Notes under the pieces: generated by a model
Databases searched by the model: none
What the model was told of the DNA's origin: nothing
The model's input: the letters and a program-made list of their open reading frames with translations, nothing else
Shown: positions 3,572 through 55,546 of the stretch, one piece after another
Layout of the letters: the number at the start of each line of letters is the position of its first letter
Position numbering within the stretch: the first letter of the stretch is position 1
Translations under genes and position numbers: made by a program
NCBI GenBank assembly: GCA_903857825.1
Contig: CAIOGI010000010.1
Coordinates: 46,542 to 110,541, forward strand
Origin: Candidatus Tayloriibacteriota bacterium
Lineage (GTDB): Bacteria > Patescibacteriota > Minisyncoccia > Phycocordibacterales > PALSA-1337
Direction of reading: 5' to 3'
DNA: 64,000 nucleotides

Positions 3572-4453
3572 CTATAGCCCCTCCTTCTTCAATTCCTCAA
3601 TTAGTTTCTGGGCGGTTTTCGATACTTTCTTTGGCATTTCAACCTTTGTAACTATTAGCAAATCACCTCTCCGACCTCTTTCGTCCGGAACACCCTTTTG
3701 TCTAACTCTCAATATTTCATTATGCGTTGTTCCTGTTGGTATCTTCAATTCAATTTTTCCATCAAGTGTTTCAACATCCAATGTAGCTCCTAGTAGTGCC
3801 GTTGTAAGTTTGAGCTGTAATTCCATTACTATGTTGTAACCCTCTTTTCTAAATACAGAATGTTCCTCCACCCAGATACGCACAATGAGATCACCTTTTC
3901 CTCCAGGACCATCCTCGCCTTTTCCTTGAACTCTTAACCCCTGACCGTTCTCGATACCAGCAGGAATAGTAACGACTATTTTTTCTTTATTAATATTTAA
4001 TTCTTTCTCAAGTCCAAAAACTGATTCCTTGAAAGAGAGTTGCACATCTACAGTAATATTTGCTCCTCTACGAGGTCGTCTACCTCCTCCAAAAAAATCT
4101 CCGAATAGATCCCCAAGATCGAATTCAAAGCTTTGGCCTCCTCCTTGTGCTTGCTGTCTCGCAAATCCAGAAAAGTCGAAGCCACCGAATCCTTGACCTC
4201 CATTAAATCCATTGAAGCCACCTTGCCCACCACCGAAACCATTTGGTTCAGCTGGACCAAATGTATCGTACTGCTGTCGCTTCTGATCATCAGAAAGTGT
4301 TGTGTAAGCTTCGTTTATCTCTTTGAATTTCGCATCGTTTCCATTATTTTTGTCAGGATGATGTTCATGAGCAAGCTTTCTAAAAGCTTTCTTTATATCG
4401 TCTTTTGAAGCGCTCTTTTCAACGCCGAGTATTTTGTAATAGTCTTTTGACAT
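3572..4453 (-). CDS. dnaJ: J-domain chaperone of the DnaJ/CbpA class (J-domain, Gly/Phe-rich linker, C-terminal substrate-binding domains; no CxxCxGxG zinc finger)
   Basis: YYKILGV...HPDKN J-domain with HPD, long GGFGG/GF repeat linker, no cysteine repeats; 293 aa. Confidence 0.85.
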
Positions 4454-19231: not shown

Positions 19232-19285
19232 AAATTATTATACCACAAGGGTACTTCTATTTCACTAATTCGCTGGGTACAGCTC
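19232..19285 (-). promoter_or_regulatory. 54-bp repeated promoter / 5'-leader module, copy 1 (minus strand carries TGGTATAAT extended -10 about 12 nt before the ATG of ORF 18077-19228)
   Basis: 52/54 nt identity with 28383-28436; both copies end 3-4 nt from a minus-strand start codon. Confidence 0.5.
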
Positions 19286-19336
19286 ATGTGAAATAAGTCG
19301 TACCATCAATATTTGTTTTATGTTTGTTGGGCTGTT

Positions 19337-19369
19337 GAAAAAAAAGAAACGTAGCGGGGGGCTACGTTT
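19337..19369 (-). terminator. intrinsic terminator of the alaS transcript (9-bp stem aaacgtagc/gctacgttt, G5 loop, then T-run on the minus strand)
   Basis: read directly; on the minus strand the A-run 19337-19345 becomes the poly-U tract. Confidence 0.6.
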
Positions 19370-19496
19370 AGATACCGAGGATGGTGCGCTTGATACCATC
19401 CTTCACTGATACTCCGACTGCCATAAGAATAGCTCTTAGTACCATGAAGGCATGACCAAACACAACCAATGCATTGACAAAATTATTGTTTTTCAT
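19368..19496 (-). CDS. possible 42-aa hydrophobic small protein (MKNNNFVNALVVFGHAFMVLRAILMAVGVSVKDGIKRTILGI) between alaS and its terminator
   Basis: hand-translated; stop codon lies inside the terminator stem; no RBS evident. Confidence 0.2.
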   Translation of the reverse strand: MKNNNFVNALVVFGHAFMVLRAILMAVGVSVKDGIKRTILGI

Positions 19497-19543
19497 TGTG
19501 TGCTATTAATATTTTTATCACAAATATGTCACATTTACAAGTA

Positions 19544-27110: not shown

Positions 27111-28379
27111 TTATATAGGTAAATTTGAAGGGGCTTGGCCTTTCTTTGAAGGAACACGATAAAGAGTAGGTGCAGCAGCCACCTGACCAGGAAAATGAAA
27201 GATTGTGGCAAGTTCTTCTGAATTTAATACAAAATACTTTTCTACATATGGTTCATAGAAATATGCTCTTCTCTTGTATGCTTCTAGAGCTAGTTTTGAA
27301 ATTCTATTGTATCTGAAACTATTATAATCCTGCCAAGGGTAATTCATTTTTGGATGATGTTTTTTTGCATCAGGAATAATAGTATTTAAATGTTCAGATC
27401 CAAATTGTTTAAAGCTTCCTAGAATGCCACCTTTATTTGAAGCATCAAAAAATTCTTTCTTTGCTATATACATAACTCTTATACCGACATCGAATGCCAT
27501 TTTTGTAATACTTCTTTCTAATGCCTCTACTATATCTTGCTCTCCTTTAGAAATACTTGGCAATTTTGTAAATCCCGTAGCTTCATCCTTTGCTCCAGCA
27601 ACCTTTGTCTTCGGATCTCGCAATAATATTTTATTAACCTCAGCCCTCGCTTGATCTTTCCACTTATCTTCTTTACTAAAAGTCAATAAAAAGCCTTTTT
27701 GTTCAACTCTATGCGATCTAACTAATATTTGTATCCAAACCTGTTGATTATATCCAACACCACCAAGATACTCTATGAGTGGTGCAAGTGGATCAACTTT
27801 GTACTCTTCCTTTGGGTCTTTATCTAGACCGTAATCAACATACGTCTTTATAGGATATGGATCTGGATTCAATAATTTCATCGTAGCCGTCCATATCTTT
27901 GTCTCTTTTGGATCAAAATGTACTGATTTTGCATAATCTTCAGCCTCAGCAACTTCTATTCCAGGAAATTGCGCGTAAAGACTACTTTGAACAAAGTTTT
28001 TTTGATCTGCTCTTGTCCATATGTAAAATCGTACTTGACCTTCTATTGATACCATTTCAAGGGAATACCATGGTCTAGTACCACCACCCCATATTCTATC
28101 AAATGCATTACCCTCACCAGCCCACTGACTTAGTGAAGTTATAAAGAGTTCCATTGCCATCGGAGACTTGATAGTTTCCTTTGGCAATTTGATTTCTAGC
28201 AAAACCGTTTTCTTCTTGAAAATTGCTTCTGATCTAACATAGTTTATCCACAATGGCCAAAAAATAATAAAAAGAATAATAACCAAAATTACAGGAGAAA
28301 AAGTTATTAAAAATAAATATATAGTTCGTATTACTCCAGGATCAATCTGAGATGATAATAATGAAAAAAAGTCACTCAT
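27111..28379 (-). CDS. hypothetical membrane protein (N-terminal double TM plus large soluble domain)
   Basis: ORF track; preceded by copy 2 of the 54-bp promoter module. Confidence 0.5.
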   Translation of the reverse strand: MSDFFSLLSSQIDPGVIRTIYLFLITFSPVILVIILFIIFWPLWINYVRSEAIFKKKTVLLEIKLPKETIKSPMAMELFITSLSQWAGEGNAFDRIWGGGTRPWYSLEMVSIEGQVRFYIWTRADQKNFVQSSLYAQFPGIEVAEAEDYAKSVHFDPKETKIWTATMKLLNPDPYPIKTYVDYGLDKDPKEEYKVDPLAPLIEYLGGVGYNQQVWIQILVRSHRVEQKGFLLTFSKEDKWKDQARAEVNKILLRDPKTKVAGAKDEATGFTKLPSISKGEQDIVEALERSITKMAFDVGIRVMYIAKKEFFDASNKGGILGSFKQFGSEHLNTIIPDAKKHHPKMNYPWQDYNSFRYNRISKLALEAYKRRAYFYEPYVEKYFVLNSEELATIFHFPGQVAAAPTLYRVPSKKGQAPSNLPI

Positions 28380-28382
28380 ACG

Positions 28383-28436
28383 AAATTATTATACCACAGA
28401 GGCACTTCTATTTCACTAATTCGCTGGGTACAGCTC
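28383..28436 (-). promoter_or_regulatory. 54-bp repeated promoter / 5'-leader module, copy 2 (TGGTATAAT about 12 nt before the ATG of ORF 27111-28379)
   Basis: 52/54 identical to 19232-19285. Confidence 0.5.
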
Positions 28437-28446
28437 ACTTCTCTCT

Positions 28447-29499
28447 TTATTTTACTGCTGATGTCATTGAGTCTAAGAGGTGATACTTACTATCCTTGTC
28501 TTTCTTAAAGTATTTCTGATTCTGTAAATTAACCATTATTGTATTATCCTTTACATATCTTTCCTTTAATACCTTTTCAATAATTTCATCTTTTGTTAGT
28601 GGACCATACTTTTCTATAATGTTTTTTATAACATCTTTGACAACTCCTGCCATATATCCCCATTCCTTTAGAGCATAAAGACCTCGTCCTACCAAAACAA
28701 ATCTCTTATCTTTTATTAATTCATTATGAGTTGTGGCTACATGAGCTTTCTTTTTGAAGATCTGAGTGATTTGCTGTGCTACTTCCTTGAAGTGTATAGG
28801 TGAACCATGCTTTCTAATAACTAGGAAAGCGTAATCTCTCATACCTTTTGTCTTCACATTTGATGAACTAGCAACACCCCACTCTCCCATAGCATTCTTT
28901 CCTATCATTTTTGATATAGACAACCATCTTTTTATGATTTCTTGATTTTTGTATTTTTCTGAAACACCCTCTAGATGTTCTAGAAACTTGTTGACAATTT
29001 CTGATTCTAAAAGTAGATCCTGATCTGAAAGATTTGAATATAATTTCTTTAATGAAGACTCTACATTCATTGCCAATTCTTCATTCAAATGCCATCTATG
29101 TTTGAACTCTGTATCCTCTTTTCTTTTTTCAAATATATCACCAATAACCAATATAAAATGAATATGATTTTGTAATGATTTATCCTTTGATACATGTCCC
29201 AAAAAATCATCCTCAACGACAATTCCACCCAGTGTATGCAACAGTTCCTCAACTTCTGCGAAAGTAGCCTTCTCACCCTTATATGCATCAGATTTTCTTA
29301 TATTTGCTAGAGCATAATTTTCTATTTGGCGAACACGTTCACGGGTTATTCCGTAAACTTTCCCTATAGAATCAAGGGTCATTTTTTCTGTTTTCTTTCC
29401 AAGTCCGTATCTACTTATAAGAACCTCCTTAGCACGATCTGGTAAGACTGAGAGTAGTCTCTTTGTTGTTTGTTTTGGCTTGAATTGAATTGTTGCCAT
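28447..29499 (-). CDS. sigma-70 region-4-like HTH DNA-binding protein
   Basis: N-terminus ...RAKEVLISRYGLGKKTEKMTLDSIGKVYGITRERVRQIENYALANIRK resembles sigma-70 region 4.2; rest unassigned. Confidence 0.6.
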   Translation of the reverse strand: MATIQFKPKQTTKRLLSVLPDRAKEVLISRYGLGKKTEKMTLDSIGKVYGITRERVRQIENYALANIRKSDAYKGEKATFAEVEELLHTLGGIVVEDDFLGHVSKDKSLQNHIHFILVIGDIFEKRKEDTEFKHRWHLNEELAMNVESSLKKLYSNLSDQDLLLESEIVNKFLEHLEGVSEKYKNQEIIKRWLSISKMIGKNAMGEWGVASSSNVKTKGMRDYAFLVIRKHGSPIHFKEVAQQITQIFKKKAHVATTHNELIKDKRFVLVGRGLYALKEWGYMAGVVKDVIKNIIEKYGPLTKDEIIEKVLKERYVKDNTIMVNLQNQKYFKKDKDSKYHLLDSMTSAVK

Positions 29500-29561: not shown

Positions 29562-32468
29562 TTAAATGACTATATTTATAAGTTTTCCTTTGATAAAAAT
29601 AACCTTTTTTATCTCTTTATCCACAAGCCACTTATTAATCTCTGAAATTTTCTTTATCTCCTCTCTTACAAAACTTTCATCTGCTTCTATATTCGCCTCT
29701 ATCATTCCCCTCACTTTACCATTAATTTGTACCATTATTGACACTGTGTCGCTTACAAGTTTCTTCTCATCATACTTTGGCCATTTTTCAGTGTGAATTG
29801 ATTTTTTGTTTTTTAGATTTGCCCATATTTCTTCTGTAAAATGTGGGGCAAATGGTGATAACAGTCTTAGTAATATTTCATAATGCTCTTTGCTTACAGC
29901 TTTTCCCTTTTCTATTTCATTTACAAGTATCATCATTCCACTAATTGCTGTATTAAACTTCATGTCCTCAATATCTTCAGTGACTTTCTTTATAGTTTTA
30001 TGAACTAATATATTCAGACTATCACTGTGTCCTCTCAGCGACAATGGATCTGTCTTCGTGGCATAGCCAGTCGACAGACCATAGTCGCTTGCGGACACAT
30101 TACCAAATACAACTTTTTCCTGCAATTTCCAAACCTTTTCTATAAATCTTCTTGCTCCTGCTATGTTATTTGTATCCCAAGCAATAGCTTGATCGAAGGG
30201 TCCCATAAACATTTCATATATTCTCAAGGTATCCGCTCCGACAGTCTTAACAATATCATCTGGATTTATTACATTTCCTCGAGATTTTGACATTTTCTCA
30301 CCCCCCTCAGCTAGAATCATACCGTGAGATGTGCGCTTTTTGTACGGCTCACTGGTAGGTACTAGACCTTGATCAAAAAGGAATTTATGCCAAAAACGAG
30401 AGTATAACAAGTGTAGTGTTGTATGTTCCATACCACCGTTATACCAGTCTACCTGACCCCAATATTTCAACTTTTTCTTGTCTGCAAAAGCCTTATTATT
30501 TTTCGGATCCATATAGCGTAAATAGTACCAGCTTGAGCCTGCCCAATTTGGCATTGTATCTGTTTCTCTCTTTGCCTTTCCTTTACACTTTGGGCACTTC
30601 GTATTTACCCATTTATCAATTGATGCGAGCGGACTCTCACCACTCTCTGTTGGTGCATAATTTTTAACCTTTGGTAATTTCAAAGGTAATTCTTTGTCTG
30701 GCAATGGAACAATCCCACATTTTTCACAATGAACAACAGGAATAGGCTCACCCCAATAACGTTGACGTGAGAATATCCAGTCGCGGAGTTTAAATTTGGT
30801 AACCCACTTACCTCCGACAAATTCGGTGATTTCTTGCTTTACTGACTCAGAATCCTTGCTGTTGAATTTGCCAGAATTAATTAAAAGACCTTTTTCAGTA
30901 CTCGCATTATTTAGATTGTTTAAGCGGTGTAACCAAATATCTAACTCTCCACAACGCATTGTGTCTGGACGAATATCTTTTAGATCTAGCCAAATTGGCT
31001 CATGTTTTTCAGATTCATCTTTACTTACAGTTCCAGAAGCATCGCCGTCCAATTCGAACAATGCAACATTAAAATATGCCACTCTATTTTCATCCTTATG
31101 CGCGGCGAAGAATTCACTTTTTACTGGACCACCAAGTATTCTAATGAATTTTAAATCTTTAATTCCAGTCTCTTCCAATATTTCTCTTCGAGCCGCTGTT
31201 TCAACGTTTTCACCTTCCTCAACTCCCCCAACAACAAAAGTGGTCCATGGTTGCTTTTTCCACTTCAGACACAAGATTTTGCCATTTTTAGGGTTTCTAA
31301 TTATTGCTTGAATGGCTTTTCTTTCTACAACTTTCTTTCCAGCAACATGAGGATTTATATAATCAATTCTTACTGGCATTACTACGTCTCGTATTTCAAG
31401 TCTATATTTCTTCGCAAAGTCCCAGTCTCTTTCATCATGTGCTGGTACAGCCATTACTGCTCCCGTTCCGTAGTCTGCTAAAACATAGTCAGCAAGCCAA
31501 ACTGGCACCTCTTCATTGTTTGCTGGATTTATAGCTTTTACACCCTTTAGTTCAACTCCAGTTTTTTCAGTCTTTGCATCTGTTCTATCAATTTCACTCT
31601 TTGTCTTTGATTCTTTAATATATTTTTCAACATCAGCCTTGTTCGAAACTTTAGCAATTAATTCACCAACAAATTCATGTTCTGGTGCAAGAACTACATA
31701 AGTAACTCCAAACAACGTATCTGGCCTAGTCGTAAATACCTTAATTTTTTTATCATTACCTTTTATTTGAAAGTCAATTTCAGCTCCCTCACTCTTTCCT
31801 ATCCAATTCCTCTGCTGTATCTTTATCTTTTCAAGAAAATCTGTTTCATCTAGGTCTTTATCAAGTCTTTCGGCGTATTTTGTAATAGCAAGCATCCATT
31901 GCTCCTTTTCCTTTTTCTCTACTTTCGTTCCACATCGCTCACAGCAACCATTTATAACCTCTTCATTAGCAAGACCAGTCAAATCCTTTGGACACCAATT
32001 GATAGTCATTTTTTTCTTGTAAGCCAAACCTGCTTTCAAGAATTGTAAGAAAATCCACTGTGTCCATTTATAGTATTTTGGATCAGTAGTATCTATTTCA
32101 CGAGACCAGTCAAAAGAAATACCGAGAGATTTTATTTGCTTTTTAAATGTATCAGAATTTTTCTTTGTAATTATTGCAGGGTTAATACCTGTCTTTATCG
32201 CATAATTCTCTGCTGGCAAACCGAAAGCATCCCAACCTATCGGGTACATTACATTAAGACCCTCTGCACGCTTTTTGCGGGCAATAATATCCATTCCCAC
32301 GTATGATCTAGGATGTCCTATATGAAGTCCTGCTCCAGAGGGATAAGGAAACTCAATCAGGGCATAAAACTTTTTCTTTTTGCTATCCTCTTTGACTTTA
32401 TTTGGCTTTTTCTTCTCCCAAACTTTCTGCCATTTCGTTTCTATTTTTTTATGATCATATTCATTCAT
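29562..32468 (-). CDS. leuS: leucine--tRNA ligase carrying an inserted Nudix hydrolase domain
   Basis: HIGH (GLHIGHPRSY), editing-domain TTRPDT and GTGAVMAVPAHD, KMSKS; Nudix box GGVEEGENVETAARREILEETGI at residues about 414-436. Confidence 0.95.
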   Translation of the reverse strand: MNEYDHKKIETKWQKVWEKKKPNKVKEDSKKKKFYALIEFPYPSGAGLHIGHPRSYVGMDIIARKKRAEGLNVMYPIGWDAFGLPAENYAIKTGINPAIITKKNSDTFKKQIKSLGISFDWSREIDTTDPKYYKWTQWIFLQFLKAGLAYKKKMTINWCPKDLTGLANEEVINGCCERCGTKVEKKEKEQWMLAITKYAERLDKDLDETDFLEKIKIQQRNWIGKSEGAEIDFQIKGNDKKIKVFTTRPDTLFGVTYVVLAPEHEFVGELIAKVSNKADVEKYIKESKTKSEIDRTDAKTEKTGVELKGVKAINPANNEEVPVWLADYVLADYGTGAVMAVPAHDERDWDFAKKYRLEIRDVVMPVRIDYINPHVAGKKVVERKAIQAIIRNPKNGKILCLKWKKQPWTTFVVGGVEEGENVETAARREILEETGIKDLKFIRILGGPVKSEFFAAHKDENRVAYFNVALFELDGDASGTVSKDESEKHEPIWLDLKDIRPDTMRCGELDIWLHRLNNLNNASTEKGLLINSGKFNSKDSESVKQEITEFVGGKWVTKFKLRDWIFSRQRYWGEPIPVVHCEKCGIVPLPDKELPLKLPKVKNYAPTESGESPLASIDKWVNTKCPKCKGKAKRETDTMPNWAGSSWYYLRYMDPKNNKAFADKKKLKYWGQVDWYNGGMEHTTLHLLYSRFWHKFLFDQGLVPTSEPYKKRTSHGMILAEGGEKMSKSRGNVINPDDIVKTVGADTLRIYEMFMGPFDQAIAWDTNNIAGARRFIEKVWKLQEKVVFGNVSASDYGLSTGYATKTDPLSLRGHSDSLNILVHKTIKKVTEDIEDMKFNTAISGMMILVNEIEKGKAVSKEHYEILLRLLSPFAPHFTEEIWANLKNKKSIHTEKWPKYDEKKLVSDTVSIMVQINGKVRGMIEANIEADESFVREEIKKISEINKWLVDKEIKKVIFIKGKLINIVI

Positions 32469-34390: not shown

Positions 34391-34648
34391 ACTTTCCTTT
34401 CTGTTTATATATTATACACAAGCCCAAAATATATACAAAAAAGGCGAGAAGAAGGCGACGTGTCCTCCAACTCGCCCAAAGGTTTACGAGCCTACCGAAC
34501 ACTCGTTCAATCCTTTCTCCTTAAGCAACTAGGGAAATCGTGTGAGCGCACAGTTCCGATTTCTTATTCCTGATTTCTGAGACAAAGCGAACTGTCTTGT
34601 CCGTTCAGGAACGCTGCTAGTTAAATTGTAACATTAAAGTAATTAAAT

Positions 34649-34667
34649 CCTAAACTCCATCACATCC
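34649..34667. repeat. 19-bp direct repeat ctaaactccatcacatccc (left copy; 22/23 when extended), a duplicate of the ychF 3' end, immediately downstream of the Fic gene
   Basis: exact 19-mer also at 35829-35847, where it encodes the ychF C-terminus (DGDVMEFRI*). Confidence 0.75.
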
Positions 34668-34688
34668 CGTAAAATAATTCTTCGTATT

Positions 34689-35753
34689 TTAACTTTTTGC
34701 AATAACCGCATAATTCTTTGCAGCAAAAATATATTGCTCTATAAATATCTTTTTAAACGAGATTAAAGAATTTAATTCGTAAAATACTAATATCGCTTCT
34801 TTGTACTCATTCTCATCGACACTACGATATGATAGTGGAGCAAATCCATGAGCAAGTAAAATTGAATTCGCTATCAATCTTGAAGTTCTTTTATTTCCAT
34901 CCTCGAATGGCTGAATGTAACTCAAACCAAGTAACATTACTAAGGCCTTTGAATATGGAGACTTCATTTTATTCACTATCTCACAGAGTGTTTCAATAGC
35001 TTCTTTTATTTGATGAATATTATCAAGTGGTCTATATATGGAACCTGTAACTCCAACAGCTTTATTACGAAGACCATGATCAATATTTAAGTCCTTTATC
35101 AAAATTTTATGTATTTCTTCTATTACTGACAATTTAATATTCATAAATTCATGAATATTTTCTCTTATTTTTTTAAATGCATACTTATGATTAAGAATCA
35201 TCGAAGCCTCAAGCTTATTATGACCCTCTGCTTCTATGCCCTTACTTATAAGTTTCTCAGTGTCTAATAATGTATATGTATTTCCTTCTATTTTTGAAGA
35301 TTTCCATGATAGTTCAATAATAAATCTCTCTAGCTCTTTCTCCTCGAGTGTATTTGAAATCGACTTTATATTATTTTTATATATTTCTGTAGCTTTATTT
35401 AATTCATCTATTTCAAAGTCTAGAAAAATATCCTCATTGATATGGTTAAATAAATCAAAATTATAGCTCTTTAGACCAATTCGTTTATCTGGTTCAATAT
35501 TACAATATTCATGAGCATTAAGATTCGAATATATCCTACCCTTTGTACTTATTGAATACACAATTGACCGACCTGCACCAGATAATGCTAAGAGATTGAG
35601 TGATTTTAATTCAGTCAATTCACGCTTGACTGTAACAAGCGAAACTTCACTTTTACTTTCAAGTAGTTTGTTGTAAACATCAGACGAAGACAACTCTTCA
35701 TTATTAAGAAAAAAACTCAATATTATTTGTTGATTTTGAGCAATTTTTATCAT
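34689..35753 (-). CDS. Fic family protein with N-terminal winged-HTH-like region and a degenerate Fic motif (QPFEDGNKRTSRL: Gln replaces the catalytic His, Lys replaces the second Gly)
   Basis: motif read from translation; start preferred at MIKIAQ (35753) because the operator palindrome would otherwise lie inside the longer ORF-track coding region (to 35786). Confidence 0.7.
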   Translation of the reverse strand: MIKIAQNQQIILSFFLNNEELSSSDVYNKLLESKSEVSLVTVKRELTELKSLNLLALSGAGRSIVYSISTKGRIYSNLNAHEYCNIEPDKRIGLKSYNFDLFNHINEDIFLDFEIDELNKATEIYKNNIKSISNTLEEKELERFIIELSWKSSKIEGNTYTLLDTEKLISKGIEAEGHNKLEASMILNHKYAFKKIRENIHEFMNIKLSVIEEIHKILIKDLNIDHGLRNKAVGVTGSIYRPLDNIHQIKEAIETLCEIVNKMKSPYSKALVMLLGLSYIQPFEDGNKRTSRLIANSILLAHGFAPLSYRSVDENEYKEAILVFYELNSLISFKKIFIEQYIFAAKNYAVIAKS

Positions 35754-35798
35754 AATCGTATCATTTAATACTCTTAATCGTATCAAAATGATACGATT
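35754..35798. promoter_or_regulatory. operator-like element: perfect palindrome AATCGTATCA-aaa-TGATACGATT (35776-35798) plus an extra half-site AATCGTATCA (35754-35763) abutting the Fic start codon
   Basis: read directly; 10-bp arms; lies between the Fic gene start and the ychF stop. Confidence 0.55.
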
Positions 35799-35820: not shown

Positions 35821-36918
35821 TTATATTCTAAACTCCATCACATCCCCATCTTTCACTATATATTCCTTCCCTTCTGTCCTTAGCAACCCTTTCTCCCTTG
35901 CAGCACCAAAAGATCCTGACTCTATCAACTTATCCCATTCTATAACTTCAGCTCGTATAAATTTATCCTTAAAGTCTCCATGAATAGCCGTTCCTGCTTC
36001 TGGTGCTGTCCAACCACGTCCAATAGTCCATGCGCGAGTTTCCTTTTCACCAGTTGTAAAATATGTAATCAAATTCAAAAGCTCATAACCTTTCTTTATT
36101 AAGTCATCAATACCATCATCCTTAGCGCCCAGTCCTTCTCGTAACTCCTTTTTTTCACTGTCATCAATATCTTTTAGCTCATGCTCTATACCAGCATCAA
36201 CTATGACCCACTTGGCTTTGTTTTCATCAAAAAAATTCATTAGAGCTTGATATCTTTCGTCTTTAATTTCATCAAGGTTCTTTCCTCCTGCTTTTTTATT
36301 CAAAATATACATGAAAGGCTTAGAAGTAAGCAGGTGTAGAGACTTTATAAATGGTTTTTCAAACTCATCTGCAATCACAGTAGAAGCTAGTCTTCCCGCA
36401 TCAAGAGCTGTCTTTATTTTCTCAAGCAAACCATTTTCGATAATTGCCTCCTTTTTTGCTTGTTGTATTTCTCTTCCGAGATTTGAAAGACGCTTCGTGA
36501 CAGTTTGTAGGTCAGCAAGTATAAGCTCAAGGTTAATAACTTCAATGTCCTTCAATGGATTAATCTTTCCATCAACGTGGATAATATTGTCATCTTCAAA
36601 AATACGAACCACTTCTGCGATAGCATCAGTCTCGCGAATATTTGTTAAAAATTGATTACCAAGACCTTCACCATCAGAGGCACCTTTCACGAGTCCAGCA
36701 ATATCTACGAACTCTACAACAGCCGGTACAGTCTTTTGTGTCTTAGAAAAGTCAGAAAGCTTGTATAGTCTATCATCAGGAACAGCCACAACACCCACAG
36801 ACGGGTCAATAGTTGCAAAAGGATAATTAGCAACAAGTACACTCTTTTTTGTAAGAGCGTTGAATAATGTACTTTTCCCCACGTTTGGTAAACCTACAAT
36901 TCCAATTGAAAGTGACAT
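35821..36918 (-). CDS. ychF: ribosome-binding ATPase YchF (Obg-family GTPase)
   Basis: [18 protein letters not shown] (G1), ...[10 protein letters not shown]..., C-terminal TGS domain; 365 aa. Confidence 0.9.
35829..35847. repeat. 19-bp direct repeat (right copy) within the 3' end of ychF
   Basis: identical to 34649-34667. Confidence 0.75.
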
Positions 36919-40626: not shown

Positions 40627-41670
40627 TTATTTTACCAGACTTATTATACGATTAGAAATTTCTTTTGGTGTCAAGATTTCATCTGCCAATCCTTCATCAA
40701 TTATTGCCTTAGGCATAGAATCTATCACTGTAGTCTCTGGAGTTTGAGCTATTATTATACCACCAGCTTGCTTTATTTTCCTTGCACCTAGAAGACCATC
40801 ATTACCCATACCGCTTAAAATAATACCAACAACTTTATCTTTATAAACTTTTACCACAGATTCCATTACAAAATTAATACAAGGTCTTGCACCACCATAA
40901 CTACTTTTTTTATTTAATTTTAATCTTTTACTTTCTAACATCTCAAATTCAAAATCGGTTGGAACAACATATACTCTCTTTGTAATCATATAGTCACCAT
41001 CCTTTGCTTCTACAACTTGCAAAGGACTTATCTTATTTAAACGTTCTGCAAACTTGGGTATAAAATATGCTGGCATATGCTGTACTACAATAATAGTAGA
41101 GAGAAGATCATTTGGAAGTAATCTAATAATGTCTTCAACTATAGGAGGACCTCCGGTAGATGAACCTATAACTATTACTTTTTCAGAAAGAACCAGTGAG
41201 TCTTTTTTTGTTTCTGATACTTTGTGTATACCTTTAGAGTAAACTTTTACATTTGCCAGTGAAGCAACGTGCACCTTTAATATAATCTCATCTTTAATTG
41301 AATCAATATCTATAGATATTTCCCCTGAAGGTTTAGTAATAAAGTCAATTGCTCCAGCTCTAAGGCTATCTAATACAATATCAGAACCGGCTAATGCATG
41401 AGCTGATATCATTATTATTGAGGGCTTCTTAAGATTAGAAAAAGAAAAAATCTCAGTTATTGTATCAATACCATTTCTATCTGGAAGATTATAATCCATA
41501 GTTATCACGTCTGGTGATAATTGTTTACTTTTTACCACTGCCTCATCGCTATTTTGTGCCGTACCAACAACTTCTATCTGATTATCAGATTCCAAAATCT
41601 CCCTCAAGAGTTTCCTCATGAAAAAAGAATCGTCAACAACTAAGACGCGAATTTTATTTTTTAGAGACAT
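40627..41670 (-). CDS. cheB: chemotaxis response regulator protein-glutamate methylesterase CheB
   Basis: N-terminal receiver (VLVVDDS...VITMDYNLP) plus C-terminal CheB methylesterase (VIGSSTGGPP..., ...HMP...). Confidence 0.9.
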   Translation of the reverse strand: MSLKNKIRVLVVDDSFFMRKLLREILESDNQIEVVGTAQNSDEAVVKSKQLSPDVITMDYNLPDRNGIDTITEIFSFSNLKKPSIIMISAHALAGSDIVLDSLRAGAIDFITKPSGEISIDIDSIKDEIILKVHVASLANVKVYSKGIHKVSETKKDSLVLSEKVIVIGSSTGGPPIVEDIIRLLPNDLLSTIIVVQHMPAYFIPKFAERLNKISPLQVVEAKDGDYMITKRVYVVPTDFEFEMLESKRLKLNKKSSYGGARPCINFVMESVVKVYKDKVVGIILSGMGNDGLLGARKIKQAGGIIIAQTPETTVIDSMPKAIIDEGLADEILTPKEISNRIISLVK

Positions 41671-50186: not shown

Positions 50187-52328
50187 TTATTGTGGCCTTA
50201 GATTAACACCGAATGCGTGTTTTACAGTAGTTCCACTCGTACCTATACTATCAATATCACCTATCACACCAGTATTTGAAATAAACTTTCTATATCCTGC
50301 CCTTGAAAAGTCAGAACTAGTATTTCCATGGTCATAGTCCTCGGTCCAGCCGCCAGACTGCGTAAGCGGTGCAGCAAATGTTCTAACTGTTGTTGTATAC
50401 ATACTCGGGAACATCAAAACAGTTGAACTTGCAAACGATGCATTTATCGAAGCTGCTCTATATGTTGTATTATTTGCTACATACTCTACATTTGTTGATG
50501 TCGCAATTGGATTTGCTGTGTTGAAGCATCCTCTATATGCAGATATTGTCACTGCTAATTTTGAACTTGAAGTCAGACCAAATGTATAATTTGAACCCTC
50601 TCCAGCCTGAGCAACTTTATAATACAAAGCTTGATTATTTACATTATTTTTATGACGTCCTATTAATGTCCAACCTGCTGGTATAGTAGAAAGTCGGTCA
50701 GAAGAATTTGAATGCAGAATATGAGCAAACATAATATCATTGGTTGTGACACCTGTAGGTTTATTAACAATTGCTGATGTGGCTCCAGATGAATCAAATA
50801 ACGTAGGTGTACCAACCAAAGCTGAGGCAACCGAACATGATGGGGCTACTATTTGTTCATTTGTAATTAAACAGCTTTTAGAACTTCCAGCAATAAGCGT
50901 TACTGCGCCACTAGAATTACAATCCCCAGTAAATGTTCTTGTATAATTTGCATCATTTGCCTCAGAAACTGAATATGTGCCTGAGTCCATTAATGTTGAT
51001 GCTGCTAGAGTAACTGTAGTCGTTCCATTTGCATTTCCAACTCTAAACGGAGCAAAGTCAGAAGCAACTTTTGTACCTCCATGATTTATAACAGTTTTGT
51101 TTACCGTGATGTATGCTGGTTTTTCTTCATTAATTAATGTGCAGTATTTTGTCGCTCCAGATGTTAAAACCACCGTACTTGTCGCATTACAATCACCACT
51201 AAAACTGAGTGAGTAAAGTGTGCTTGTAGCTTCAGATACCACATGAGATCCAGAATCTAGTGTTGTGGTTGCGCCTAGTGTAACCGTATTTCCATCAATC
51301 TTATATGGAGCAAAGTCTGCTGCAACTTTTGAGCCTCCATGATTTATAACAGTTTTATTTAAAACAATTGAAGAAAGTTTCTCTTCGTTTGTTATAGTGC
51401 AGTTTTTTGTATTTCCTGCTGTCAGAGTTACCAGTCCACCAGAATCACAATCACCACTAAATGATCTATCGTATAGTGAATCATTTACTTCAGAAACTGT
51501 ATGTAGTCCTGAATTAAAAGTATTAAGCGCTCCAGAAATAACAGGGTTAGAATCAATCAGTAGTGTAAAATCAGAGGCGATTTTGGAAAGTCCATGATTA
51601 ATAACAGATTTAGTGACCACAATTTTAGATGGTTTTTCTTCATTTGTTATAGTACATGAGTTTGTTGTACTTGCGACTAGATTGATGTCACCATTTGTAT
51701 CACAATCACCACTAAACGTAGTTGTGTAACTCGCATCGTTTGATTCAGAGATACTATATACACCTGGTGGGAATTCATTGGCAATACCGATATTTACTGT
51801 CGTTGTACCTACTTGATATGGAGCAAAGTCTGCTGCTACCTTAGAAGCTCCATGATTAATAACACTTTTGTTTACTGTTAACCCAGCATTTGTATTCAAA
51901 ATTGCACGCCAATTGGTTAGATATGTACTTAGCTTTAAAGTATTAGTCGCAGATATTTGATCTGCCCAGTTTATAGTCACATCAACTCTTTTTTGATTAT
52001 CATTTATTGTAGTAATATTCAATGTCCTGCTAAAAATATCACTTAGATCAGAAACTCCAGAAAAGCTCCACTGATTAGTCGATGTAGATAGTCCGTATGT
52101 ACCGTCAATTAGATTGTTAAAATTTTCATCTCTTATATTTCTAGATGCCTCTATCGCTTCTTCTGCAAGTACCGCTGCCCTTTGTTTGTTTGCAGAGTTT
52201 CTGACCTCCTTACTTACATTACCTGTAACATTTGTAGTAGCTATAATAAATACAAGAAAAATAGAGACCGATACTAGTAATTCTACCAGTGAAAAACCTT
52301 TTTTAATATGTAACAGTTCCTTTTTCAT
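50187..52328 (-). CDS. large type IV pilin-like protein (713 aa) with four tandem ~85-aa Cys-pair repeats
   Basis: KKGFSLVELLVSVSIFLVF prepilin N-terminus; repeats VINHG(A/G/L)(S/T)K(V/I)A(A/S)DF...FSGDC...C(T/L)ITNEEK at residues ~151-234, 235-320, 321-404, 405-492. Confidence 0.65.
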   Translation of the reverse strand: MKKELLHIKKGFSLVELLVSVSIFLVFIIATTNVTGNVSKEVRNSANKQRAAVLAEEAIEASRNIRDENFNNLIDGTYGLSTSTNQWSFSGVSDLSDIFSRTLNITTINDNQKRVDVTINWADQISATNTLKLSTYLTNWRAILNTNAGLTVNKSVINHGASKVAADFAPYQVGTTTVNIGIANEFPPGVYSISESNDASYTTTFSGDCDTNGDINLVASTTNSCTITNEEKPSKIVVTKSVINHGLSKIASDFTLLIDSNPVISGALNTFNSGLHTVSEVNDSLYDRSFSGDCDSGGLVTLTAGNTKNCTITNEEKLSSIVLNKTVINHGGSKVAADFAPYKIDGNTVTLGATTTLDSGSHVVSEATSTLYSLSFSGDCNATSTVVLTSGATKYCTLINEEKPAYITVNKTVINHGGTKVASDFAPFRVGNANGTTTVTLAASTLMDSGTYSVSEANDANYTRTFTGDCNSSGAVTLIAGSSKSCLITNEQIVAPSCSVASALVGTPTLFDSSGATSAIVNKPTGVTTNDIMFAHILHSNSSDRLSTIPAGWTLIGRHKNNVNNQALYYKVAQAGEGSNYTFGLTSSSKLAVTISAYRGCFNTANPIATSTNVEYVANNTTYRAASINASFASSTVLMFPSMYTTTVRTFAAPLTQSGGWTEDYDHGNTSSDFSRAGYRKFISNTGVIGDIDSIGTSGTTVKHAFGVNLRPQ
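50853..51878. repeat. four tandem ~255-bp DNA repeats inside the giant pilin gene
   Basis: recurring blocks e.g. ...ctccatgat(t/a)(t/a)ataaca(g/c)(t/a)ttt(g/a)tt... at about 51100, 51340, 51600, 51850. Confidence 0.6.
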
Positions 52329-53896: not shown

Positions 53897-55546
53897 TTAT
53901 TGAGGAACTACTACTCTCAAGAGTTCTTCAATTGTAGTTACTCCTTCCTTAATTTTATCTACCCCATCTTCAAACATTGTTTTAAATCCCTGACTTCTAA
54001 CAAGGGTGTATACGTCTTTTGTTGAAGGACTCTTACCGATCAAATCTTGTAATTCTGGAGATGTTTTCAAAAACTCAAATACTCCTATACGCCCCTTAAA
54101 GCCTGTATGTGAGCAAGAATCACATCCCTTTCCTTTATAAAAGTTAAATGTCTTGCCAACAAAATATTTACTTACCTCTGGTCCAAATTTACTGATTTTG
54201 CTTTGTGTATATGACTGACTAACCTTGCAAGAATCACATATTTTTCTAACCAATCTTTGTGCTATCAATAATTCTATTGTAGAACCCGCTAGAAATGGTT
54301 CAATTCCCATATCAATAAATCTTGGTATTGCTGCTGTGGCATTATTGGCATGAAAAGTAGACAAAAGTAGGTGCCCAGTAAGCGCTGCATTTACAGCTAT
54401 ATCTGCAGTTTCAAGATCTCGAATTTCACCTACGAATATTGTATTTGGATCCTGTCTGGTAATAGCTCTCAGACCTTTTGCAAAAGTAAGATTTGTTTGT
54501 TGATTTACTTGAATCTGATTTATACCTTGAATCTTATATTCAACTGGATCCTCGATCGTGGTAATGTTTGTTCTTTGGGTGTTAATAACTTTAATTATTG
54601 AGTAAAGGGTAGTTGTCTTTCCAGATCCAGTAGGACCGGTGACCAAAATCATTCCAAAAGGTTTCTTAGAGCTTACCTCGATCTGATCTTGTAGGCTTTT
54701 TGATAATCCAATGTCACTTAATGTTAGATCACGAACGTATGATGACAAGACGCGTATAGCGACTTTCTCTCCATCCAGCGTTGGGACAATTGATACTCGC
54801 AGATCAACTGGATGTGGATAGTTTTTTGAAATATAACGAATAGCTCCGTCTTGGGCACTAAAATGTTCATCTATGCGAAGTTTTGCCTGAACTTTTATAC
54901 GATTTACAATGTTTTCATAATATTCTTTTGGTAATTCACCAGCATCATGTAGTATTCCATCAATTCTAAAACGAATAGCAACTTTATTTTCTTGTGGTTC
55001 ACAGTGTATGTCTGAAGTTTTAAGCAATAAAGCATCTTCGAAAATCTGATCAAGTATTTCTGGTGCGACTCGCCCTTTTGACTCAATTATTTTTGAAAAT
55101 TTAGTTTTTAGTCCTTGTTGATAATTTACAAAAATAGAATCGATTTCATCAGACAATGCATAGGTGATTTTTATCTTTTTCCCAGGAAAAATAGGTGAAA
55201 GTCCCTCCACCAATGCCTTGTTTAAAGGATCATCAGTTGCTATCACTATTTCAGAATTTGTTTGAGAGAAAACAATAACACGAAGCTTTCTAGCGATTTC
55301 TTCAGGTATTAGCAATACCTGCTCTCTATTTGGTTGTTTTATACTTAAATCTGAATATTGAATTTTTAAAGATTCAGCAATTGCTTGACCAATAATATCT
55401 GTACTAGTAAGTCCTTCTAATAACAAATATTCTGTTGGCAACACTCTATGATCTTCAGCATAGTCTCTCGCTTTTTTAATATCTTCTTCAGTAATATAAT
55501 TTCCATCTAGTAGAATCTTTATTATTGTTTCTTGATCAAATTTCAT
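53897..55546 (-). CDS. pilB: type IV pilus assembly ATPase (PilB/GspE family)
   Basis: Walker A GPTGSGKTTT, Asp box, His box, tetracysteine CDSC...CSHTG; 549 aa. Confidence 0.9.
   Translation of the reverse strand: MKFDQETIIKILLDGNYITEEDIKKARDYAEDHRVLPTEYLLLEGLTSTDIIGQAIAESLKIQYSDLSIKQPNREQVLLIPEEIARKLRVIVFSQTNSEIVIATDDPLNKALVEGLSPIFPGKKIKITYALSDEIDSIFVNYQQGLKTKFSKIIESKGRVAPEILDQIFEDALLLKTSDIHCEPQENKVAIRFRIDGILHDAGELPKEYYENIVNRIKVQAKLRIDEHFSAQDGAIRYISKNYPHPVDLRVSIVPTLDGEKVAIRVLSSYVRDLTLSDIGLSKSLQDQIEVSSKKPFGMILVTGPTGSGKTTTLYSIIKVINTQRTNITTIEDPVEYKIQGINQIQVNQQTNLTFAKGLRAITRQDPNTIFVGEIRDLETADIAVNAALTGHLLLSTFHANNATAAIPRFIDMGIEPFLAGSTIELLIAQRLVRKICDSCKVSQSYTQSKISKFGPEVSKYFVGKTFNFYKGKGCDSCSHTGFKGRIGVFEFLKTSPELQDLIGKSPSTKDVYTLVRSQGFKTMFEDGVDKIKEGVTTIEELLRVVVPQ

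Follow-up and report, generated by a model that had tools for sequence, protein, structure and literature searches.

Why do two unrelated genes of an uncultured bacterium carry nearly the same 55 nucleotides (nt) immediately in front of their start codons? The question arises from a 64,000-nt stretch of contig CAIOGI010000010.1 (Candidatus Tayloriibacteriota bacterium), which we call the window throughout; it has a GC content of 34%, and nearly all of its genes lie on the minus strand, the coding strand in what follows. The two genes encode an FtsA/PilM-like actin-fold protein and a DUF8128 membrane protein (Table 1). The bacterium belongs to the Patescibacteria, or candidate phyla radiation (CPR), uncultured organisms with tiny genomes, and to our knowledge almost nothing is known about their transcription signals. 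We propose, with a probability of roughly 0.6, that the repeated sequence is the promoter-bearing end of a small noncoding hairpin cassette, which is inserted or copied into −10 boxes and multiplies in this way. Our confidence is high that the repeat belongs to a family and that it includes a promoter.

A repeat search of the window aligned positions 19232 to 19286 (copy 1) with positions 28383 to 28437 (copy 2) as a 55-nt direct repeat with 52/55 identities. An earlier reading made from the letters and open reading frames (ORFs) of the window (the sequence-only reading) had described near-identical 54-nt segments in front of two unrelated genes. Both parts of this description hold, with an identity over that extent of 51/54 rather than 52/54. 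The three mismatches cluster (GTACCCTTG versus GTGCCTCTG), and a 34-nt core on the minus strand, TGAGCTGTACCCAGCGAATTAGTGAAATAGAAGT, is the same in both copies, with 0 such cores expected (0 in 100 shuffles). The repeat stops 3 nt short of each ATG. A covariance model (CM) search of the 64 kb recovered only these two copies; the next best match (40751 to 40780; 12 bits, E = 0.5) lies inside the cheB coding region and was rejected as a chance match. The window encodes housekeeping functions (AlaRS, LeuRS, MnmA, YceG/MltG, ribosomal proteins, RpoA, and DnaK/DnaJ/GrpE), a chemotaxis cluster, and type IV pilus genes, and its gene order recurs on contigs from several samples. We rejected the possibility that the two copies are the attL and attR borders of a 9-kb island, since the interval between them holds AlaRS, MnmA, and MltG/YceG genes in synteny conserved with relatives. 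Homologues of both downstream proteins come from metagenome-assembled genomes (MAGs) named Patescibacteria, Paceibacterota, Taylorbacteria, or Parcubacteria; the FtsA/PilM-like protein has 62 homologues, some of them labeled "cell division ATPase FtsA" by JGI.

Both copies read, on the minus strand, TGTGGTATAAT, then 8 nt, and then ATG. TGTGGTATAAT is a consensus −10 element with a TG/TRTG extension, and it is present in all members of the family described below. A promoter scan paired it with a weak −35 element, GTGAAA, across a 17-nt spacer, and in both copies the 8 nt separating TATAAT from ATG contain no Shine-Dalgarno sequence. Orthologous promoters that lack the repeat unit keep TGNTATAAT-N6-8-ATG. 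In front of the FtsA-like gene, they read TGCTATAAT-AGTTCATC-ATG (L003) and TGCTATAAT-TAAACC-ATG (L006), where L numbers denote loci of other genomes or contigs; in front of the DUF8128 gene, TGATATAAT-N7-8-ATG (L065, L067, and L006); and in front of FtsE, TGCTATAAT-AATCCC-ATG (L068) and TGGTATAAT-AATTTTT-ATG (L071). Among 13 TATAAT-terminated pattern matches in other Patescibacteria genomes, 12 have an ORF-opening ATG 6 to 9 nt past TATAAT (11 of these ORFs span 113 to 714 amino acids [aa], and one runs off the end of its locus); in the exception, L025, the ORF lies 53 nt downstream of TATAAT. In the window, TATAAT itself is balanced between the strands (59 versus 58 occurrences), and TATAAT followed by 7 to 8 nt and an ATG that opens an ORF of at least 65 codons occurs 7 times on the coding strand versus 0 times on the other.

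The conserved N termini of homologues indicate that both ATGs are real starts. The FtsA-like protein begins MFSFF…, and 16/16 homologues start MF(S/P)(F/L)…; the N termini of DUF8128 homologues, MIxFSDIF…, align with MSDFF of the window protein and support the ATG at 28379. We conclude that leaderless or near-leaderless transcription of both genes, as the sequence-only reading proposed, is well supported by comparative geometry, with TATAAT 6 to 9 nt from the same ATG in relatives. The extended −10 element that it had placed near the ATG likewise stands, in both copies and with its geometry kept in relatives. The 3′ part of the unit is strongly supported as a strong extended −10 promoter at which RNA polymerase (RNAP) is predicted to start on the ATG or right beside it. 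Leaderless mRNAs driven by extended −10 (TRTGn-TATAAT) sigma-70 promoters have reportedly been mapped in Actinobacteria and Deinococcus (e.g., Cortes et al. 2013, cited in PMC12641261). The promoters described here resemble them in having TATAAT after TG/TRTG, no usable −35 element, no Shine-Dalgarno sequence, and a start codon 5 to 9 nt past the −10 element, which puts the predicted transcription start on the ATG; they differ in that the upstream half of the promoter comes from a repeated hairpin cassette and in being known from sequence geometry. We found nothing relevant on leaderless transcription, promoters, or miniature inverted-repeat transposable elements (MITEs) of CPR/Patescibacteria in the searchable literature.

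Leaderless geometry seems common in this genome. Five further minus-strand genes have TATAAT 7 to 8 nt before ATG and no Shine-Dalgarno sequence; they start at 55546, 37747, 18067, 9846, and 4453 and encode a T2SSE/PilB-like ATPase, a response regulator, a 452-aa protein (the gene after the FtsA-like gene), a 65-aa ORF product, and DnaJ. A separate observation concerns annotation. Gene callers start L003 1358-2656 and L015 1910-2620 at the TTG of the cassette sequence TTG TGG TAT AAT, which gives a spurious N terminus "LWYN…" and proteins of 432 instead of ~422 aa (L003) and of 236 instead of 226 aa (L015). Reading into the cassette thus produces wrong N termini in public annotations, and the artifact marks cassette-bearing genes in public protein sets.

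Copy 1 is part of a longer unit. Orthologues of it lie before the FtsA-like genes of L008 (57% aa identity) and L011 (54%), reach ~20 nt farther upstream than the window repeat, and have the layout GGTACGAC-aTATTTCACA-TGAGCTGTTTACAGCGAAT-TGTGAAATA-GAAGTACCCTTGTGGTATAAT-N8-ATG; in L008 the unit is preceded by the same terminator as copy 1. A scan of one genome per GTDB species with the pattern GAAGTNCNCTTGTGGTATAAT returned 16 loci, 12 of them in Patescibacteria MAGs (four from one MAG, GCA_964468845.1; two within one 4.7-kb stretch). An upstream hairpin is present in 10 of these 12; L012 is cut at a contig end, and L020 has no recognizable hairpin. The other four loci (in a Sulfurovum MAG, L013; an Oscillospiraceae MAG, L019; Hominibacterium, L021; and a Cryomorpha MAG, L024) were rejected, having no hairpin and no ATG within 12 nt, and four exact 21-mer matches outside the Patescibacteria is about the chance number for 19 specified bases in 596 Gb. 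The consensus layout is (TGNTA) CGAC, hairpin H1, GAAGTRCYCTTGTGGTA, TAAT, 5 to 9 nt, and ATG. Units are 46 to 62 nt long (~60 nt in copy 1), with the near-invariant GAAGTRCYCTTGTGGTA at their 3′ side; the 15-mer GAAGTRCYCTTGTGG beside the −10 element is near-invariant across distant Patescibacteria lineages. Every unit is oriented toward the downstream gene, and every unit lies inside a −10 box. The genes after the units encode a response regulator, RmuC, an FtsE-like ABC ATPase, an MFS transporter, an epimerase, a PD-(D/E)XK nuclease, a sortase, a META-domain protein, and a PMM/HAD hydrolase. Units also occur in tandem arrays, with the inner junction CTTGTGGTA|CGAC (GTGGTA|CGAC) found once in L015 and twice in L023. 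Units L015a and L027, from the same MAG, differ at 3 of 61 positions.

Further copies, for which the sequence-only reading proposed to search, are therefore absent from the rest of the window but present in at least 12 other Patescibacteria loci. That reading had also considered that the repeat might be part of a larger element, such as the end of an insertion sequence (IS). Copy 1 does belong to a ~60-nt unit plus flank, but this is not an IS end, and Pfam scans of 40/65 window ORFs (all those of ≥150 aa) revealed no transposase gene. Beyond the copies located by the pattern, ~250 kb of related loci held no extra ones. The exact 21-mer CCCAGCGAATTAGTGAAATAG from the identical core had 0 matches in genome contigs; two matches in JGI metagenomes (L001 and L002) lie in an unrelated, higher-GC context with other flanks and were attributed to chance. 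A scan of viral contigs with GAAGTNCNCTTGTGGTA gave 37 matches, none with a hairpin, and CM scores of ≤29 bits that come from the 3′ motif alone. In plasmid and phage collections, the unit had no blastn match, and Rfam 15 gave no gathering-level match in the window or in four unit-bearing loci (a relaxed threshold gave noise, E > 2). The searchable literature makes no mention of the unit. For the other unit-bearing genes RmuC, FtsE, PMM, and response regulator, no clear orthologues were found in the window.

RNAalifold, applied to 13 aligned units, gave a 13-bp hairpin (H1) with compensatory double changes in 10 of the 13 pairs. When pairs were counted over the 13 units, 95% of cells were paired, and 0/500 shuffles reached the observed values; as a control, sliding the partners by 1 to 3 columns lowered the paired cells to 37 to 51%. 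The distance from one conserved flank to the other ranges between 21 and 40 nt and follows hairpin length. Long units are capped by GA-NN-GAA-N′N′-GA, mostly GAGCGAAGCGA, whose inner two pairs covary (GC/GC, GT/AC, CT/AG, and AC/GT); short units have a plain AT-rich hairpin. For copy 1 as single-stranded DNA (ssDNA), the predicted folding energy is −10.1 kcal/mol (z = −3.9), which 0/200 shuffles equaled. There is weak evidence that the hairpin, if formed, forms on the sense strand: H1 has 13 T·G wobbles versus 1 C·A mismatch, and the A-to-G and C-to-T changes in GTRCC keep pairing only on that strand. The apex of most long units, GA-GC-GAA-GC-GA, contains d(GCGAAGC), a "mini-hairpin DNA" of extraordinary stability that occurs in ssDNA initiation signals and in N4 hairpin promoters, where recognition of such ssDNA hairpins leads to priming or transcription (PMC13037366). 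This apex is the likeness between the units and the GCGNAGC mini-hairpins or the hairpin promoters of the phage N4 virion RNAP. Unlike those phage and plasmid ssDNA signals, the hairpin described here is a predicted fold, is chromosomal, and lies upstream of an ordinary sigma-70-type −10 element, and the window units have an expanded apex, GCTG-TACC-CAGC.

At three orthologous sites, in front of the FtsA-like, DUF8128, and FtsE genes, TGNTATAAT is uninterrupted in unit-free relatives and lies equally far from the ATG. Where the unit is present, the order is TGNTA|unit|TAAT, and the unit separates TA from TAAT of the −10 box; in copy 1 the junction between unit and flank falls between A19241 and T19240. 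The FtsA-like site is filled in the window, L008, and L011 and empty in L003 (TGCTA|TAAT), L006, and L009. The left flank of copy 1 (TTCAACAGC…ATTGATGGTA) aligned with the unit-free L003 sequence (TTCAACAGC…ATAATGCTA) with a score of 12, versus −7 ± 4.5 for shuffled sequences (0/2,000 as good), and the alignment terminates exactly at TGGTA| versus TGCTA|TAAT. We rejected the idea that the L003 promoter is a decayed unit, as its alignment was no better than shuffles (113/2,000). At the DUF8128 site, L003 is filled (left flank …CTGCCT|CGAC), and L065, L066, L067, and L006 are empty (…CTGATA|TAAT or …CTGCTA|TACT) with the same terminator upstream. At the FtsE site, L015 carries two tandem units, and L068 (95% aa identity; TGTGCTA|TAAT) and L071 (93%; TATGGTA|TAAT) are empty; the three orthologues share the start ATGATCTATTTCGAC…. 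Counted from the flanks, TG occurs at −5/−4 (TGNTA, with N variable) to the left of the 5′-most unit in 11/14 arrays; a binomial test run for ≥10/14 at a background TG frequency of 0.0645 gave P of ~1e-9. TA (or GGTA) lies on both sides of the unit (TGNTA|CGAC…GTGGTA|TAAT), either as a TA duplication or as part of the element.

Copy 2 differs from copy 1 in lacking the left section (19287 to 19304), including the left hairpin arm; the complete unit reaches 19300 to 19304. Its predicted fold is not significant (−3.5 kcal/mol; z = −0.9). The upstream gene ends with a stop codon at 28449 to 28447, and identity with copy 1 begins 9 nt after it. In relatives, a terminator lies between the upstream gene, which encodes sigma-70 region 4 and HARE-HTH domains, and the DUF8128 promoter; in the window it is missing along with the left arm. 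The right flank of copy 2, TAATAATTTCGTATG, is orthologous to TAATAATATTCGTATG of L065. A full unit is present at the DUF8128 site of L003 (DUF8128 protein 80% identical), with a hairpin that differs from copy 2. Copies 1 and 2 share 29/29 nt of the lineage-specific apex (GCTGTACCCAGC) and right arm (TTAGTGAAATAG), a region that is variable across the family, and we infer that sequence passed recently between the two window loci. The three substitutions of copy 2 sit in CYCTTG, which is elsewhere invariant. Copy 2 may be a recent intragenomic copy or a gene-conversion product of copy 1 that retained the promoter and lost the left arm and terminator; deletion between two GAGC microhomologies together with gene conversion from copy 1 would account for it. 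Since copy 2 and all the unit-free orthologues keep the promoter, the comparison supports the conclusion that the hairpin would be dispensable for it. A related structure was observed in L023 (minus strand, ~3894 to 4010), where a unit truncated at the hairpin apex (GCGAAGCGAGTTAGGGATATAGAAGTGCCC…) is fused to a 3′-truncated unit. The same class of breakpoint in this array and in copy 2 suggests that the apex is a recurrent point of recombination or deletion.

In the reading that we favor, the cassette splits a sigma-70-type −10 hexamer into TA and TAAT, and its 3′ end, TTGTGGTA, rebuilds the extended −10 element TGTGGTATAAT together with the resident TAAT (TGTGGTA|TAAT). The rebuilt promoter would start transcription at or within 1 to 2 nt of an ATG 5 to 9 nt downstream and so give a leaderless mRNA. 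Further units could enter the re-created box and generate tandem arrays; the tandem junction is as reinsertion into a regenerated box predicts. Movement could follow a single-strand, hairpin-dependent "peel-and-paste" route of the IS200/IS605 and repetitive extragenic palindromic (REP) type, inserting 3′ of …GTA; copy-choice or slippage between TGNTA/TGGTA microhomologies at hairpin-stalled forks would be an enzyme-free alternative. The hairpin and the invariant 15-mer would serve propagation of the cassette rather than promoter activity. A mobile promoter cassette was one of two suggestions of the sequence-only reading. It is plausible and close to our best explanation, given a family found in many genomes, unrelated downstream genes, and filled and empty orthologous sites. 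A more far-reaching version, which we put forward only tentatively, is that these units are an as yet undescribed class of tiny (46- to 62-nt) hairpin mobile elements of Patescibacteria that integrate specifically between −11 and −10 of the −10 hexamer. With their own TTGTGGTA end, they would regenerate the promoter and leave expression of the host gene from a leaderless mRNA intact. They would be "promoter-neutral," selfish, moved by an HUH-type enzyme or by copy-choice, and exchanged horizontally between CPR lineages. The −11/−10 target would be the upstream edge of the transcription bubble, transiently ssDNA.

Several observations weigh against spread by insertion. No transposase, integrase, or HUH domain was found in Pfam scans of 40/65 window ORFs (all those of ≥150 aa), and tblastn with an IS608 TnpA query found no match in the window or related loci, a search that covered ~64 kb here and short loci elsewhere. 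Hairpin arms differ between copies within one genome, which would make it difficult for a single transposase to recognize them all. Copies are few, with ~2 in the 64 kb here and at least 5 in one MAG, unlike in typical MITE and REP families. Identity between the window copies begins inside the hairpin and runs 5 nt beyond TATAAT, and the event that links them looks like gene conversion or deletion rather than clean transposition. Leaderless initiation, for its part, is deduced from geometry. Finally, units at the orthologous FtsA-like site are 90 to 97% identical, next to genes whose 4-fold synonymous sites are 32 to 48% identical (saturated) and whose proteins are 54 to 57% identical. Strong purifying selection in situ, which would imply a host function, accounts for this conservation no less well than a recent lateral gain would. 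In a neighbor-joining tree, L011 (with a unit) is the sister of L003 (empty; 79% aa identity), and the window and L008, which both carry units, fall in another part of the tree. This leaves two histories: very strong selection on the unit with several precise losses, or recent, independent acquisition of closely related units at the same promoter.

The conservation of the FtsA-site units is the first argument for the main rival, a host cis-regulatory hairpin. The hairpin would be the control element of a special promoter class, acting in DNA, as a cruciform or protein-binding structure over the −35 position, or in RNA, folded within read-through or alternative transcripts; it would be kept by selection gene by gene, with new copies arising by occasional recombination. 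Strong covariation, the excess of T·G wobbles, and the sense-strand pairing of the GTRCC changes agree with such a function. So do the conservation of the 15-mer across distant lineages and the right arm, which occupies the −35 position, with GTGAAA 17 nt from TATAAT. We nevertheless consider this explanation unlikely. The target genes are unrelated and differ between genomes, the same gene has a unit in one genome and none in a sister genome, and units occur in tandem and truncated forms. Copy 2 has lost the hairpin and yet fronts a highly conserved gene. A canonical terminator just upstream of copy 1 shields the cassette from upstream transcription, and there is no conserved upstream promoter to transcribe the hairpin. 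Other leaderless promoters of the window lack the 15-mer, and no Rfam family matched.

The other suggestion of the sequence-only reading, a shared regulator-binding region, fared worse. A common transcription factor or alternative sigma factor site, with the two window genes co-regulated in one regulon, would explain the identical 34-nt cores and the near-invariant 15-mer by the −10 element, and a sigma-70 region 4/HARE-HTH gene adjoins the DUF8128 gene in all relatives. It is nonetheless improbable, because the downstream genes are functionally incoherent and their membership is not conserved between genomes, the variable spacing between the conserved flanks and the tandem arrays do not suit a binding site, and the compensatory arm changes indicate that structure, not a recognition sequence, is kept. 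An isolated event (two promoters of this genome linked by a single segmental duplication or gene conversion, or an artifact of chance or assembly) would suit the mere two copies in the window and their tract bounds, which resemble gene conversion, but it is very improbable, and as a complete explanation already refuted by the family distribution: two other genomes carry the unit at the orthologous FtsA-like site, at least 10 further Patescibacteria genomes carry it before other genes, 0 copies are expected by chance, and the same gene order is found on contigs from several samples.

How does the cassette compare with known small repeats? Correia elements (NEMIS) of Neisseria are promoter-carrying MITEs of 100 to 155 bp with terminal inverted repeats (TIRs) of ~26 bp, a site for integration host factor, a TA target duplication, and hundreds of copies. 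Like them, the units are small intergenic noncoding repeats whose ends create or replace promoters of unrelated genes and which vary in presence between related genomes. Unlike them, the units are 46 to 62 nt long, have no TIRs, and split the −10 hexamer itself. The ends CGACTTATT… and …CTTGTGGTA are not inverted copies of each other, so that the TIRs of a classical MITE are absent; they pair with each other only through a 5-bp GGTAC/GTRCC stem, to which the flank contributes. REP elements are mobilized by REP-associated tyrosine transposases (RAYTs) and reach tens to hundreds of copies in a genome, an abundance that the two copies in this 64 kb do not approach. The subterminal imperfect palindrome of IS200/IS605 and REP/RAYT systems has a counterpart here in the hairpin, kept by covariation in all full units. 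IS200/IS605 elements move by single-strand "peel-and-paste" transposition (PMC5027513, PMC3201880). As in IS200/IS605 and REP elements, the units are centered on a hairpin with one strand structured, lack TIRs and a clear target duplication, lie directly 3′ of a short fixed …GTA that is repeated at their own 3′ end, and occur in tandem, and unit-free orthologous sites are intact, as after precise excision. The complementarity of GTRCC inside the unit to the GGTAC junction is reminiscent of the pairing of guide and cleavage site in IS200/IS605. The differences are that the units are short, have one major hairpin with arms not conserved between copies, are low in copy number, have a fixed orientation to the gene and always lie in the −10 box, and came with no Y1/HUH transposase gene in 40/65 window ORFs or related loci. 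DnaA boxes, DNA-uptake sequences, and integron attC sites were dropped as candidates for mismatches in sequence, copy number, and context. A small noncoding palindromic repeat that supplies a promoter while sitting inside, and regenerating, the −10 hexamer is apparently undescribed.

The comparative evidence points to leaderless transcription of many Patescibacteria/CPR genes from extended −10 promoters, and it places a conserved structured DNA cassette in the −10 box itself. If mobile, the cassette targets the region of promoter melting and repairs the promoter that it interrupts, which would be a new way to survive in genomes with almost no spare DNA, and CPR genetics would gain a strong, portable promoter of natural origin. 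Should the cassette prove to be a host regulatory hairpin, it would define a new class of promoter that a large bacterial radiation has conserved.

Table 1. Features of the two cassette loci in the window
Feature	Position	Strand	Description
Copy 1, complete cassette unit	19241..19300	−	CGAC + hairpin H1 + GAAGTACCCTTGTGGTA; CM 77.8 bits, E = 5e-21
Hairpin H1, copy 1	19257..19297	−	Arms TTATTTCAC / GTGAAATAG; apex GA-GCTG-TACC-CAGC-GA at 19272-19283
Outer 5-bp stem, copy 1	GGTAC 19300-19304 pairs with GTACC 19250-19254	−	
Extended −10 TGTGGTATAAT, FtsA-like gene	19237..19247	−	TATAAT 19242-19237; 8 nt to ATG 19228-19226; no Shine-Dalgarno sequence between
Left flank, copy 1	19301..19345	−	TTCAACAGC...ATTGATGGTA, ends TGGTA; read as displaced upstream half of ancestral promoter
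Intrinsic terminator of upstream 42-aa ORF	19338..19369	−	AAACGTAGCCCCCCGCTACGTTT + T-run
FtsA/PilM-like actin-fold protein gene, 383 aa	18077..19228	−	Predicted to be driven by copy 1; no Pfam match
Copy 2, 5′-truncated unit	28392..28437	−	Apex, right hairpin arm, and GAAGTGCCTCTGTGGTA kept; left arm, CGAC, and upstream terminator absent; CM 28.7 bits
Extended −10 TGTGGTATAAT, DUF8128 gene	28388..28398	−	TATAAT 28393-28388; 8 nt before ATG 28379-28377
DUF8128 membrane protein gene, 422 aa	27111..28379	−	PF26449; predicted to be driven by copy 2

Other features of the window were noted in passing. Between alaS and copy 1, positions 19370 to 19498 (minus strand) encode a 42-aa hydrophobic small ORF (MKNNNFVNALVVFGHAFMVLRAILMAVGV…) that has its own strong intrinsic terminator and is called as a gene in public contigs. 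Positions 28447 to 29499 (minus strand) encode a 350-aa protein with an N-terminal sigma-70 region 4 followed by HARE-HTH; its gene lies directly upstream of the DUF8128 gene in every relative examined (L003, L006, L066, and L067). This architecture is unusual, and the protein is a possible RNAP-associated factor. The leucyl-tRNA synthetase gene (29562 to 32468, minus strand; 968 aa) has a NUDIX domain inserted at residues 383 to 502; the insert is present in L006 (946 aa) and absent from L003 (798 aa) and L066 (795 aa). A Fic-domain gene directly follows ychF (genes 34689 to 35786 and 35821 to 36918, minus strand), and the last 26 nt of ychF (GGGATGTGATGGAGTTTAGAATATAA) recur just past the Fic gene with 24/26 identities (34643 to 34668 and 35821 to 35846). 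The Fic gene looks like a cassette inserted at the ychF 3′ end with duplication of the target end. Four tandem repeats of ~258 nt, 66 to 86% identical, span positions 51045 to 51874 within ORF 50187 to 52328 (minus strand), which adjoins the type IV pilus genes; its 713-aa product has no Pfam match and is probably a repetitive surface or pilus-associated protein.

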